NCBI GenBank assembly: GCA_964016885.1
Contig: OZ024747.1
Span: forward strand, 36,456,001 to 36,520,000
Direction: 5' to 3'
Length of the DNA stretch: 64,000 nucleotides
Source of the DNA: Eledone cirrhosa
Lineage: Eukaryota
The first letter of the stretch is position 1. Each line of letters opens with the position of its first letter. Shown here piece after piece: positions 41,713-54,962 of this stretch. Both the position numbers and the translations under genes were made by a program. The notes under the pieces were generated by a model, which worked only from the letters and a program-made list of their open reading frames with translations, was not told the DNA's origin and did no database searches.

Positions 41713-41930
41713 TAAATATATATATATATATATGTAGATAAATCTACCAAGAGTTTACGGTAGTGTCCAATCCGTATGAAGAACTCAATGTATTCCGGAT
41801 ATCATGGAAAGAAGAGATGTAATGAAAAATCACTTTCGGTGAAAGATAAACGGTATACAGAGTCAAGATAAAATATTAAACAAATAATGAATAAAACAAT
41901 GAAACAGTTCCTTATATTAAACAAAAAAAG

Positions 41931-42084
41931 TTCATTATTTAACGATCGTTTCTAGGATATATATGTGTTAGAATTGGCATGCATATTCAACAGATCTATG
42001 TACAAAATTATACAAAATTATACAAACTATCAAGATTAAATATACATACCAACACATATATACGCCGTCTTCAGAAATAATGAA
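41931..42084 (-). ncRNA. Type I hammerhead with extended stem II
   Basis: Mirror of 52717-52860, with an extra 10-bp tandem copy (tacaaaatta) in the stem II loop. Confidence 0.8.
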
Positions 42085-45000
42085 ATATATTTATTGATAA
42101 TAACAACAATTCAAAATTTCAGGTCCGTTTGGGAACAAAATTGACCAATGAAAATACAAAAGGTTTTATGCAGTTCGGTGTGTGTATATACATGTAACTA
42201 CCCTTACACATATTTTACAAAAATGTATGCTCAACATGTATACGCATACCAAAAGGATGGATGCAAATACAAAATTTCAAGGTTAATGTCTCTGTAAGTT
42301 TATAATGCACAGATAAGATGCGTATAGACACATAAATATGAAATAAGTGTATACACATATTCTCATACTCACACATATCCGTACAATCACACACACGCGC
42401 GCGTATATGCATAAACATACACATAATTACGAACATACAAATACACACACACCCCCACTCACATATATATATGTGGATATAATATTATCATAAGCACATG
42501 GATATTAATTCACTCACATAAACACTGCCACACGCATTTAGATCAAGATACAGAAATTAGGTGGGAGGGGGGGAGAGGTCAGTATTCAACGGTTTGGGCA
42601 GACTGCTTATTATAGATGTATCTATAAACTAAGAAAATAAAAAATAAAAATTAAAAAGGAAAGAAAAGAAAAAGAAAAAAGAAAAAAGAAATATATCAAG
42701 AAAATATATATATATATATATATACATATACATACATATATATATATATATATATATATATATATATATAAACATATACATACATATACACACATCCACA
42801 CTTAGAACATACATACACACACATATATAAACATATACATATACACACATACACACATATACACACATACATATAAATATAAATATATATATATATATAT
42901 ATATATATATATATACACACATATATACACATATAATCCCACATACTATATAGACACACATATATATATACACATACACGCACATATACATACACATACA
43001 TACTTATATACATACAGATATACACATACATACCTATATATACACACAAATACATACAGACATACATACATACATACACACAAATACTTACGCATCCATA
43101 TATCGGTATATACATACAAACACCACTACACTCTCACACATCTCAGACATACAAAGAAAAAGGTATATACCTATACACATATACATATACAAATAGAGAT
43201 ACATATACATATATATATATATATACACATATATATATATATATATATATATACATACACATATACACACATATACATACATACACATACATACATGTAC
43301 ACACACATACATATACATACATACACACATACACACATACATATATAGTCATACACACACATACACCTACACGAACATACACATACACATATATAAAGAT
43401 ATATATACACACACACACACATACACACACACACATATATATAAAATAAAGATATATATATATATATATATATATATATACATACATATACATACACACA
43501 TACATAGACATATATGTACATACATACACATACATACATACATACACACACATATATACATATATATACACACATAGACACATACATACATACACACACA
43601 ACATACATACACACACATATATACTCATACATAGAATTAGATATATATTCATACATACATACGCACTTACATATACTCATATATACAAATACATACGCAT
43701 CCATATATGCGTATATACATACAAACACCACTACACCCTCACACAACTCAGACATACAAAGAAAAAGGTATATACATATACATATATACACGCATTAATA
43801 GAGATATATATACACATATATATATATATATATATACACATACATTTATATATATACACCCACACACACATACAACCATAAACACACATACAAACACACA
43901 CATACACATATATATACACATACATATATATACACACACACAAAAAACAGACATACACATATATATTTTTTACACATATATATACACATATATATACATA
44001 TACACACCCTCACATATACACACATACACATAAGTTATATTATAATAATAAATAATATATATATATATATATATATATATATATATATATATATATATAT
44101 ATACACATACGAATATAGACATATATACGCACATAGATATATATATATATATACATATACACACACACACTCACATATATATGTGCGCACACGCACATAT
44201 ATACACATACACACATATACACGTAAACACATACATGTGCATACATGCACATACACACATATACCCACATAGATACGAAGATAGACATATAAATAGAGAG
44301 ACATACATATATATACACACACATATATACATACATACATACACACATATATATATATATATATACATACACACATACACGCCCACACACATATACACAT
44401 ATACACATATATATACATACACACATACACATACACATATATATACACATGCATATATACACATATACATATACATACACACATATATATACACACAATC
44501 TTACATTCTTATTTGCATGCGCATATATGTATTTTTATATTCAGATATAAATACCCAAACATATATACACCTACCTACATATATATTCTCATACATACAC
44601 GCTTACAAACACAGATGATAATAGTATGGGGGAAAGGGGGGGGGGTGGAGAAGGGGATTATAGTAAATATATGTTTCAAGAAACATAGAATATTATCTGT
44701 ATCTGGATCCAATGTATGTTTTTACATAGTTTCAGTGTTAGGAAATACTAGAAATAAGGCAAAATGTATGCATTTCAAAATAAATAAGTATACCATTAAT
44801 TATATGTTAACTAAACTAAAGATAGTTAACATATTGATTTCTAAGGTGTAAATTAGTTAGGTTTATAATATTTGAAGCAGAATTTTGAAGTTAAATAGTA
44901 GTAGAGTATTAATTATAGTATAACTAAATTAAAGTTAATAACGTTATGGTATCAATATTAGGAAATGAATTTAGTAATAGGGAAAAAACAAATAAAGTAT

Positions 45001-45728
45001 TACATCGGTAGTAGAATATAAATTATAGGTTAACTAAATTAAAAATTATATATTAATTTCTATAGTATATGTTAATTAGGTATATAATAAATAAAACAGA
45101 TATTGTATTTTATCAATAGCAGAATATAATTATATGCAAATAGAAATCAAAATTAATACATATACATATACATATACATACACATATATATATACATATA
45201 TATACATATATATATATATATATACACATATACACACACATACACATACATATACATACATACATATACATATTTTTTCAAAAATTGCAAAGAATATATT
45301 AACTAGGTATATATCCAAAACACATCCCATTCTATGATTACATGACATTCTGCAATCCGTCTGTATAAGGATACTAATTTTAAGCCAATTAAATTAAATT
45401 TTTAGGTTGACTAAATTTAAAACCAAATTATAAATATATTTCTAAAATGTATATTAATTAGGTCTATAATACTAAAAATTATTTCTCTGTCATTGGATAC
45501 ACGATATTTTGTTATATTTTATCTGTAAAGGAATTTTAATAAAAGGTTTAAATAAATTAAAATTAATCTATAAATTAAATTACTAAGTATATATTAGTAA
45601 TATTTAAAGGTTTTTCACAATTTATGATTACACAATATTTTATATTCTCATCTGTAATAGAATTTTAATTAAATTAAATTTATAGGTTAACTAACATTTA
45701 AATTAAATTAATTTCTAAAATAATGTTA

Positions 45729-52000: not shown

Positions 52001-52716
52001 GTTCTAAGTGTGGATGTGTGTATATGTATGTATATGTTTATATATATATATATATATATATATGTATGTATATGTATATATATATATATATATATATTTT
52101 CTTGATATATTTCTTTTTTCTTTTTTCTTTTTCTTTTCTTTCCTTTTTAATTTTTATTTTTTATTTTCTTAGTTTATAGATACATCTATAATAAGCAGTC
52201 TGCCCAAACCGTTGAATACTGACCTCTCCCCCCCTCCCACCTAATTTCTGTATCTTGATCTAAATGTGTGTGGCAGTGTTTATGTGAGTGAATTAATATC
52301 CATGTGCTTATGATAATATTATATCCACATATATATATGTGAGTGGGGGTGTGTGTGTATTTGTATGTTCGTAATTATGTGTATGTTTATGCATATACGC
52401 GCGCGTGTGTGTGATTGTACGGATATGTGTGAGTATGAGAATATGTGTATACACTTATTTCATATTTATGTGTCTATACGCATCTTATCTGTGCATTATA
52501 AACTTACAGAGACATTAACCTTGAAATTTTGTATTTGCATCCATCCTTTTGGTATGCGTATACATGTTGAGCATACATTTTTGTAAAATATGTGTAAGGG
52601 TAGTTACATGTATATACACACACCGAACTGCATAAAACCTTTTGTATTTTCATTGGTCAATTTTGTTCCCAAACGGACCTGAAATTTTGAATTGTTGTTA
52701 TTATCAATAAATATAT

Positions 52717-52860
52717 TTCATTATTTCTGAAGACGGCGTATATATGTGTTGGTATGTATATTTAATCTTGATAGTTTGTATAATTTTGTACATAGATCTG
52801 TTGAATATGCATGCCAATTCTAACACATATATATCCTAGAAACGATCGTTAAATAATGAA
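52717..52860 (+). ncRNA. Type I hammerhead with extended stem II
   Basis: ttcattattt-CTGAAGA-[~105 nt closed by tatatatgtgttgg/ctaacacatatata]-GAAA-CGATCG-TT-aaataatgaa. Perfect 10-bp stem I; palindromic AACGATCGTT. Confidence 0.82.
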
Positions 52861-54962
52861 CTTTTTTTGTTTAATATAAGGAACTGTTTCATTGTTTTAT
52901 TCATTATTTGTTTAATATTTTATATATATATATATATATATATATATATATATATATATATATATATATATATATATATATATATATATATATATATGTA
53001 TGTATGTGTGTGTGTGTGTGTGTGTGTGTGTGTGTGTATGTATTTATATGCGTACATATGTGTGTGCGTGATATGTAAAAACTATGTATATTAGATTACC
53101 TTCTTTGCCTCTAGTTTACTTTAATATTTAGATACATTATAGATACAAATATATTCTTAATTTTAAATCGATGTCTGTACTGTCGTTTCAATTTGCTTTA
53201 GACACGGTTTGTATACGGCAAAATATTTAATTCATGATAACAAATAGATTTATTAGTTTCTGTTTGTAATATAACATTTGTTAAACTAATATAATCCCAA
53301 AATATAACGGAAATTACCTAGAAGACTTATAATATATAAATTGACCGGGATTTTCCAGTATTAAATTATTACATAGATGATATATGTGTTTTTGAAAAAC
53401 AGACCAGTTCACTGTTTGAAAAGGATATAATCCACTGATTTATCAAGTATGAAATGAGATAATCGGAGAAAAACATTGGAACTCTTTTAGAGATAGTTCT
53501 GCTGTGATTTATGAATCACAAAGCCAGTAGAAGACAACAGATGCGTGTCTGTTTTATTTTCTTGACTTTTGTTATGCAGTTTTTTTATTATATTTCTATA
53601 GCTAAATAGAGAATATTTTTTTCTATTTTCACTTAAGTCACTATCGATTTGGCACGAATATTTTTAGATTTAACATTAATATTGATGTTTCTGTGCACAA
53701 AAATATGTTTCCTCAAATTCCTCTTCTTTTTTTATGTGTATGTTGGTAAAATGATGTCTCATTTTATAATTTGTATTCGAAGAGGAAAAGGTTCAGTTTT
53801 ATGTATGTGTTTTTATGTGTAACTATTAAGAATATCGATATGTGATATACTTACTGATATATGAGTTTTCTTAACGTTCTTTCAGAAATTATCCGCTGGT
53901 TAAATTATTGTTTCTTTTGAAGTGTCAAGCTGTAGGACAAAGTTCATCTCCAATTGCTACGGAGTCCAGATCATCGAAACCTAATAAATCAATATCAATA
54001 ATATGCCTAGGTGTGGTCTGGTTTATATAATACACTACGGTATAATATAAAAAATAGCTTGCAATGGCATTAATAAATACTTCCTTATTGTATGCGAATG
54101 TATGTATAAACATTTCAGTCTTCAATTGTTCCTTCAAGAGGGCGAATCTTTTCTCCGATTACACAAATAGCATTCCATCTTTGTTTTCTACTTTCTAAAC
54201 GGGGTAGCTGGTTGTAGTGTTTCCCACGATAGACAGTTAACAATAAGTAATACGTTTGAGGAAATATGATATTAGATATATGTATATAAAAGGGAAATAA
54301 AGTATATTTTTTTAACATGAGCACCAAGCTAATATATGCTAAGTCTGAATATATTATTTCAAAAAGAATAGAAATCTTGAACCTTACTCCCACATATTTT
54401 ATGTTTCTTTCATCTACAACTTATTTAGGGAATTTATAACCAAATGAGATTCTTCTAATTCTTCGTTTTCGGCATTGAAAATTACAGAAATGGTATCATA
54501 GAACCGACATCGCATCTTTGCTGAGAAAGTGCAAATTTATTAATGGACGTATTTCCAAATTGAAAGAAAGCAAAATATGGTATCCTATATTCAATTGAAA
54601 TCAAAATGGCATCCTAAAGGAACAATCTGCAGCGATTCATATAATTCACAGGCGTCAATGTTAAGAGTATCAGCTGTCAGCGTTGAAGTAGATTACGTGA
54701 CGTATGATGACTATTGAGAGAGGAGCGCTGGATAATGCTTACGAAGCGATGTGTCATTTTCGGCAAAAGAAATATTTTGAAAGTCAACAAGGTTTGAATG
54801 GATATTTATTTGCTGGTTATACTACTAGACTATCATATATAAAACTATGAAATCAATCCTTGCATGATACCATTCAATTCGACCAAAAGGTATAACGGAA
54901 TCTCAAAATATTGAAATTAATTGGACTGAATATTCCCAAGCACTTCTAATTATCATTCTTTA

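Follow-up and report, generated by a model that had tools for sequence, protein, structure and literature searches.

How does a retroelement come to lie head to head with a nearly identical copy of itself? The question is posed by a 64,000-nucleotide stretch of the Eledone cirrhosa genome (assembly GCA_964016885.1, contig OZ024747.1, positions 36,456,001–36,520,000; C7:36.46–36.52 Mb; hereafter the window), for which a first-pass annotation had described an 11-kb inverted insertion of a Penelope-like element (PLE). Comparison of the window with itself bore out this layout: an inverted repeat links 41868–46427 with 48367–52923 at 98.1% identity over 4,594 columns, with differences mostly in microsatellite length, and this identity supports the suggestion that the insertion is young. 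What had been overlooked is the main regularity of the locus, namely that its arms terminate at two fixed 3′ ends, 137 nt apart and one per arm. Based on these ends and their occurrence across the 3.0-Gb assembly searched, we propose that both ends of a cut target probably prime on one RNA at two fixed sites (twin target-priming) and that the resulting arms are joined at microhomology.

Two fixed 3′ ends and their pairing

Positions within the element (u) refer to the natural unit of a tandem array on C6, which spans 6,662 nt and has its ATG at u401. On this map the locus reads, from left to right, (TA)n, u610–6912 in reverse, u265–674 forward, u2144–6775 forward, and (TA)n. The minus arm is 137 nt longer than the plus arm at its 3′ end, running past site A (u113) to site B (u250); we therefore refer to the two as the B arm and the A arm. 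Apart from the significance of these ends, the anatomy had been read correctly to within a few bases (Table 1): a minus arm starting at 47962 with reverse transcriptase (RT) and endonuclease (EN) but no N-terminus, a plus arm with the 5′ untranslated region (UTR) and N-terminus (its ATG at 48095, not 48096), an overlap of ~65 nt between the arms (47898–47962 versus 48304–48368), and a skip of ~1.47 kb at a 2-nt CG.

Each site is followed by a small TTTC-N3-GAAA hairpin. These hairpins, of which there are only two per unit, lie 24 nt past site A and, in the upstream repeat, 14 nt past site B (u264–274 for the latter), and the plus side of the head-to-head junction in the window begins inside the second one. 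Another A arm stops at u282; together, these stops give a weak hint that the hairpin may act as a roadblock.

Both ends recur throughout the genome. Exact searches, whose counts are lower bounds for the family, returned 4,178 B ends and 2,037 A ends abutting (TA) as well as 302 read-throughs of site B into the next unit, while the reversed end patterns used as controls gave no match. To see how the ends combine, we scored inward-facing pairs within 20 kb over the first 99.7 Mb of C1, which holds 46 A and 100 B ends. By coordinates there were 36 pairs, 35 of them A–B and one B–B. Once the sequences of all 36 had been fetched, the B–B pair turned out to be two separate insertions and one A–B pair proved to be A–A with a separate B copy beyond it, leaving 34 A–B, one A–A and no B–B among 35. 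Five of seven seemingly unpaired B ends were likewise inverted, with an A-type end missed by the exact pattern; inversion is thus probably the usual outcome.

The window contains a second inverted insertion (37178–41527) from another Hydra-like family, which carries a one-sided tail of 90 nt and has 1,408 and 1,505 exact end matches genome-wide. Judged by coordinates only, all 60 inward pairs of this neighbour family were A–B (among 89 A and 100 B ends).

Two arms, probably from one template

If both arms of an insertion derive from the same RNA, they should resemble each other more than any other copy. Among all fetched arms, the partner was strictly the nearest in 17 of 20 long pairs; at family-segregating sites, the two arms showed no difference in 16 of the 20, one difference in three, and eight in the pair C2_345. 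The arms of the window differ at four of 2,200 unmasked sites, one of which is a junction edge, and every such variant is private to one arm. Conversely, they share u2767G and u3827A, a combination that exact searches found nowhere else: u2767G recurs in one older, 95%-identical copy and u3827A not at all. (That older copy, on contig C1533, was considered as an allele or source because it shares the one rare variant, and was discarded on account of its divergence.) In addition, the displaced 5′ piece of the A arm has u659G in common with the B arm, where 62 matches from other loci carry A. Three rare alleles common to both arms thus point to one template. The claim of a single integration event stood, whereas the multiple template switches invoked with it were overstated: the 1,471-nt gap could have arisen when the enzyme jumped along its RNA template or, afterwards, through a deletion at microhomology close to the centre of the palindrome, and we hold the two to be about equally probable. 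Loci L095 and L113 have parallel gaps, and microhomology deletions have been reported for Penelope copies in the portion of PMC3846280 that deals with them.

The C6 array extends this argument to a much larger product. It forms part of a 41.5-kb insertion (L021–L025; C6:49.525–49.566 Mb) made up of ~5.4 tandem A-side units, with a period of 6,643–6,662 nt, and one truncated, inverted B-side unit; four of its units have open 813-aa frames. A private allele of its single B arm recurs in the outermost A-side unit but in none of the inner ones, a pattern to be expected of two arms that both begin on the final unit of one multimeric template. To produce such an array, templates must have been very long or jumps repeated. 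Rolling-circle copying from one monomer accounts for it poorly, given that the units differ at family-segregating sites.

How far the arms reach bears on the order of events. Of the pairs compared, 33 were resolved and 13 were not; the A side extended further 5′ in 18 of the 33 (one being an A–A pair), equally far in nine and less far in six, and in five pairs the B arm stopped short of site A. The first-pass annotation had called the element a fold-back. Taken to mean that the polymerase copied its own target-primed complementary DNA (cDNA), this does not fit the family-wide reach of the arms, since an A arm copied from a B-primed cDNA could never outreach it in the 5′ direction. Moreover, at the centres of five short insertions there is either a self-complementary overlap of 2 nt or a spacer of 1 nt, and such centres fit two annealing cDNA ends better than a hairpin loop. 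As for the stops themselves, 20 of 66 arms end at u6558–6565, where the A of a TCATT lies a short way upstream of the hammerhead-like core described below (u6562; position 52720 in the window), and this is the recurrent stop of short sister insertions; no recurrent stop at the predicted ribozyme cut was seen in the checked pairs. Among the short insertions are recurrent 550–570-bp palindromes (L072–L087, L127–L130) consisting of two pseudo-long terminal repeats (pLTRs) that both stop at u6562, probably copies begun in the 5′ pLTR of the transcript. The head-to-head junctions of L127 and L128 contain fillers, 21 nt and A-rich in the former and 18 nt of unrelated sequence in the latter.

We infer the following course. 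The GIY-YIG domain would cut both strands within (TA)n, whereupon one target end would prime at site B and the other at site A of the same RNA. Each cDNA would run toward the RNA 5′ end and stop at a variable point (u610 and u265 in the window), the frequent stop of short insertions at u6562 likely marking the transcription start, to judge from its likeness to an initiator. A later polymerase would displace the earlier cDNA, so that arms could overlap by kilobases, and the two cDNA 3′ ends would finally anneal head to head and be filled in. Part of this course has a precedent in vitro, where a Poseidon PLE was seen to cut and extend both strands and to start at two internal sites that bound the tail (experiments in PMC11167929).

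Several points weigh against this account. The model has to posit that kilobases of cDNA are displaced and that transcription starts at u6562. In the in vitro experiments just mentioned, the start site did not depend on the strand (PMC11167929). A second A–A pair, at C1:166.45 Mb, was confirmed after having been chosen as a candidate from the list of A ends; with the one in the census (L096), it makes A–B pairing a strong bias and not a rule. The eight segregating differences between the arms of C2_345 point to two templates at that locus. Lastly, our searches found no source copy bearing the shared alleles of the window, and a DNA-templated second arm or arm-to-arm conversion would account for their sharing too.

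Some of these points would be met if a free or self-primed cDNA folded back into a palindrome bearing site B at either end, one tail being then trimmed by the endonuclease and the 1.47-kb gap being a later deletion. Shared private alleles would then need no source copy, A–A pairs would have been trimmed at both ends, and either arm could be the longer; the C2_345 junction does have a 14-nt, loop-like centre, and the literature has, in the passages concerned, ascribed the tail to EN-mediated resolution (PMC8557442) and proposed self-priming (PMC3846280). We nevertheless regard this route as unlikely. Untrimmed products should survive, yet there is no B–B pair among the 35 of this family and the 60 of its neighbour; centres without a loop or with a single nucleotide are hard to reconcile with it; in the window as in L095, each arm has sequence that the other lacks, which requires an extra deletion; the C6 array would require a jump of ~30 kb; and two RNA start sites have been demonstrated directly in vitro (PMC11167929).

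Alternatively, twin priming might involve two RNAs, one per protomer, which would stem from a single source locus, or else from different ones with gene conversion between the arms afterwards. Long palindromes do undergo such conversion, strand displacement would be dispensable, and the eight differences in C2_345 would be accounted for. However, two equal RNAs offer no obvious cause of A–B pairing, arms match within insertions although subfamilies differ by 0.1–5%, and the B arm of the C6 array matches the outermost unit, not the adjacent one; we thus give this version little credence.

Four public sequencing runs covering 47500–48900 contained neither junction of the window, only the intact join (47962–48303, in one contig), but these runs carry other alleles at the private sites of the window and hence stem from other individuals or species, so that they neither confirm nor refute the junctions. 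That the locus is an assembly artefact from a fold-back chimeric read is very improbable even so—notwithstanding that neither junction appears in an independent run and that palindromes trouble assemblers—for the mirror symmetry halts exactly at site A and does not take in the flanks, of which the right one (53060–54900, beyond the (TA)n tract) is single-copy in the assembly, the arms are told apart by three substitutions and by several microsatellites of unequal length, and this layout recurs, with different junctions, at dozens of other loci.

Twin priming on one RNA at two fixed sites therefore remains our preferred account of this family. Whether it extends to Hydra-clade PLEs generally, as coupled priming by two RT sites, one for each end of a (TA)n break, on one RNA molecule at two hairpin-marked starts 137 nt apart, is a more tentative matter, and we would put the general claim somewhat short of probable. 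If true, head-to-head palindromes of up to tens of kilobases would be the normal product and the tail would simply be the offset between the starts; the origin of PLE inversions and tails would be settled, and a young, intact and abundant family would provide a ready enzyme–RNA pair.

A young family of long Hydra-clade elements

Pfam and PDB sequence searches with the 813-aa protein returned nothing useful, and its identity consequently rests on predicted folds together with motifs. An AlphaFold2 model built with 118 homologues reached a predicted local distance difference test score (pLDDT) of 86.5. Its top nine Foldseek matches were all telomerase reverse transcriptases (TERTs), and a TERT was likewise the best structural match in VIA (Z 17.1, root-mean-square deviation (rmsd) 5.7, 302 aligned residues). 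Modelled alone, the C-terminal domain matched I-TevI (Z 9.0, rmsd 2.3, 89 aligned), followed by T4 EndoII and UvrC; Foldseek by itself gave no match for this domain at E ≤ 0.001. Some 95 low-confidence residues (477–570) follow the thumb. As judged from these models, the element is an EN-containing (EN+) PLE, combining a telomerase-related RT with a C-terminal GIY-YIG domain in one open reading frame (ORF).

The Hydra clade, as defined in the relevant part of PMC8557442, has RWK in place of GxKF/Y, DKT in place of DKG, a CxCx5C linker, and CxxC and CxH next to the conserved E and N, without CCHH. The protein has RWR at 37 and DKT at 115 and no G.[KR][FY]; among the 118 homologues, 73 have RW[KR] and 96 have DKT. 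CNCRNKANC at 673 represents CxCx5C, and CRLC (771) and CNH (799) follow. By eye, these linker and endonuclease cysteines fit the Hydra rows of the published alignment (the part of it in PMC8557442) and the endonuclease lacks CCHH. Tandem and partial-tandem pLTR layouts, inverted 5′-truncated copies and a one-sided tail are all present, as in EN+ PLEs, and (TA)n was found at all 18 ends inspected. The hallmarks of Neptune, Nematis and Penelope/Poseidon (DKG, CCHH, and the CX2-5CxxC linker of Neptune/Nematis) are absent, as is the N-terminal endonuclease of Naiad/Chlamys, the endonuclease here being C-terminal. With its unit length of 6,643–6,662 nt the element departs from the Hydra description "generally short (<3 kb)", which is not a diagnostic trait. 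Motifs and predicted folds thus agree with the first-pass assignment to the Hydra clade, for which CxCx5C, GLYRDD and the (TA)n flanks, all of them present, had been cited.

Near the 3′ end lies a candidate ribozyme, which on the grounds of its primary sequence we call hammerhead-like. The core, a 10-bp stem I and a palindromic stem III are present and conserved across fetched copies, while stem II measures 105–115 nt and two unpaired bases precede GAAA; extra bases beside the core and a palindromic stem III are usual in PLE hammerheads, according to the portion of PMC4209133 that describes them. In an unconstrained fold, stems I and II form and the core does not. No hammerhead family was among the best 150 of 178 Rfam matches, those listed being only microsatellite-driven microRNA and small nucleolar RNA families, all under the gathering score.

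Dozens of family copies at 97–100% identity emerged from a genome DNA search in which the best 40 of 3,886 candidates were scored. The B arm of the window is itself 97.4% identical to an intact array unit, microsatellite length changes included. We infer that the family is young, abundant and probably still mobile. Its members also bear on two earlier proposals, that the arms complement each other to a full-length ORF and that a probably recently active element can be rebuilt from them. In the assembled sequence, a homopolymer of the minus arm (47070–47076) is longer by one base, which breaks the coding region of this arm into two frames of 311 and 479 aa. This 7+7 form occurs in the window copy only, against 68 matches to the 7+6 form and three other variants in fetched, partly overlapping loci; the extra base may be a real indel or a long-read homopolymer error. 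Reconstruction is needless in any case, because, with the window set aside, an uninterrupted 813-aa frame is found in 11 of the 19 top loci, two of the 11 altering the invariant D252. The locus is thus an ordinary, broken example of its family.

Table 1 Features of the 11-kb inverted insertion (positions in the window)
Feature	Position	Strand	Remark
Left (TA)n target remnant	41707..41733		A few ambiguous A/T bases common to remnant and arm end
B arm, u610–6912	41731..47962	-	5′-truncated; ends at site B
137-nt tail, site A (u113) to site B (u250)	41731..41867	-	On B arm only
Small hairpin TTTC-N3-GAAA	41834..41844	-	24 nt downstream of site A
Type I hammerhead-like motif (predicted)	41931..42084	-	Stem II 115 nt
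Coding part, aa 71–813, frameshifted	45729..47962	-	RT, thumb, low-confidence N/K/T-rich region, CxCx5C linker, GIY-YIG endonuclease
Homopolymer	47070..47076	-	One base longer than in other copies; frameshift just after YRDD motif
Head-to-head junction	47959..47962		4-nt microhomology TTCA
A arm, 5′ piece, u265–674	47959..48368	+	5′ UTR, ATG 48095, aa 1–91
Internal junction	48367..48368	+	2-nt microhomology CG; 1,471 nt of unit skipped
Main A arm, u2144–6775	48367..52923	+	Ends at site A; aa 583–813, stop 49063–49065, 3.7-kb microsatellite-rich 3′ region
Type I hammerhead-like motif (predicted)	52717..52860	+	Stem II 105 nt; predicted cut after 52850
Right (TA)n target tract	52921..52996

The surroundings of the locus are rich in related insertions. 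In the neighbouring inverted insertion, a frame at 39002–39943 (−) encodes thumb, CxCx5C and GIY-YIG, a hammerhead core lies near 41256, and the family protein is 41% identical to the 813-aa protein over 224 aa. Between the two inverted insertions, a ~180-nt element flanked by TA runs (41524–41706) features a near-perfect hairpin (41610–41699) and a hammerhead-like core (−) and is probably the stub of a third family, making three insertions in one (TA)n tract. Further palindromes or inverted pairs at 24139–24572, 22447–22822, 25457–25972, 19243–20365 and 16273–18974, with identities from 98.6% down to 77%, are likely older insertions of the same kind; some adjoin TA runs and have one-sided extensions or hammerhead cores (22716, 59428). 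Decayed Hydra-like endonuclease fragments, 36–46% identical to the 813-aa protein, occupy 20431–21577. A 798-aa frame with a Pfam RVT_1 match (E 1e-26) and a 178-aa downstream frame at 27191–30065 (−) belong to a non-LTR retrotransposon of another kind. Elsewhere in the genome, L027 (3695–7327, −) contains an open 1,210-aa frame that is Neptune-like by motif and matches the 813-aa protein weakly (E 0.007 over 68 aa). A long asparagine-rich stretch ahead of its RT recalls the N-rich inserts of Adineta vaga Penelope elements.

Comparison with known systems

A known analogue of the proposed model is LINE-1 twin priming, in which both target ends prime on one RNA and give rise to a 5′ inversion joined by microhomology. 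There, however, the second primer anneals at variable internal places and the arms barely overlap, whereas in the present family the second site does not vary and the overlap of the arms can amount to kilobases. A search of titles and abstracts, outside of which lies the older subscription literature on Penelope, found no published twin-priming model for PLE inversions.

With the Hydra-clade PLEs treated by Craig et al. (2021; PMC8557442), which include Hydra-1_Obim, the element shares, as far as that survey's sections on the clade go, a single ORF with the RT followed by a C-terminal GIY-YIG, the motifs RW[K/R], DKT, CxCx5C, CxxC, CxH and LYRDD, a (TA)n target, and, close to the 3′ end, a motif of hammerhead type whose core is accompanied by extra bases; one Repbase member even has an inverted 5′-truncated copy attached. 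It differs in its unit of 6.66 kb (against 1.1–3.0 kb listed), its 813-aa protein (~700 aa in most relatives), its 3.7-kb microsatellite-rich 3′ region, a stem II of 105–115 nt in place of short hairpins, and its thousands of young ends and multi-unit arrays. The size range of Hydra elements is thereby widened to 6.7 kb, and long tails and a far larger stem in the hammerhead-like motif are added to their features.

Head-to-head copies with a one-sided tail have already been published for PLEs, and the present element is an unusually long member of a known clade. Like the inverted EN+ copies described in parts of PMC8557442 and PMC3846280, it combines a head-to-head layout and a tail at one end with partial tandems, microhomology junctions and deletions. 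Unlike in those, the tail measures 137 nt (90 nt in the neighbour family) as opposed to 30–40 nt, both arms can approach full length, and A–B pairing and the single template have been counted.

The Poseidon element PAc of Anolis carolinensis (Frangieh et al. 2024; PMC11167929) is similar in that, in the experiments concerned, RT starts at two internal sites that lie downstream of the hammerhead and delimit the tail, the target is AT-rich, both strands are cut and extended, and ribozyme cleavage is not needed. It belongs to another clade, however, its start sites fall within the ORF and not upstream of the ATG as here, and the in vitro assays considered here displayed no coupling of strand to site and did not deal with inverted products. 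As to how PLEs finish integration and acquire inversions and tails, the literature offers EN resolution, self-priming or unvalidated later steps; with thousands of young natural products, a strong bias toward A–B pairs, arms that point to a single template and intact 813-aa frames at hand, coupled priming can be tested directly in vitro.

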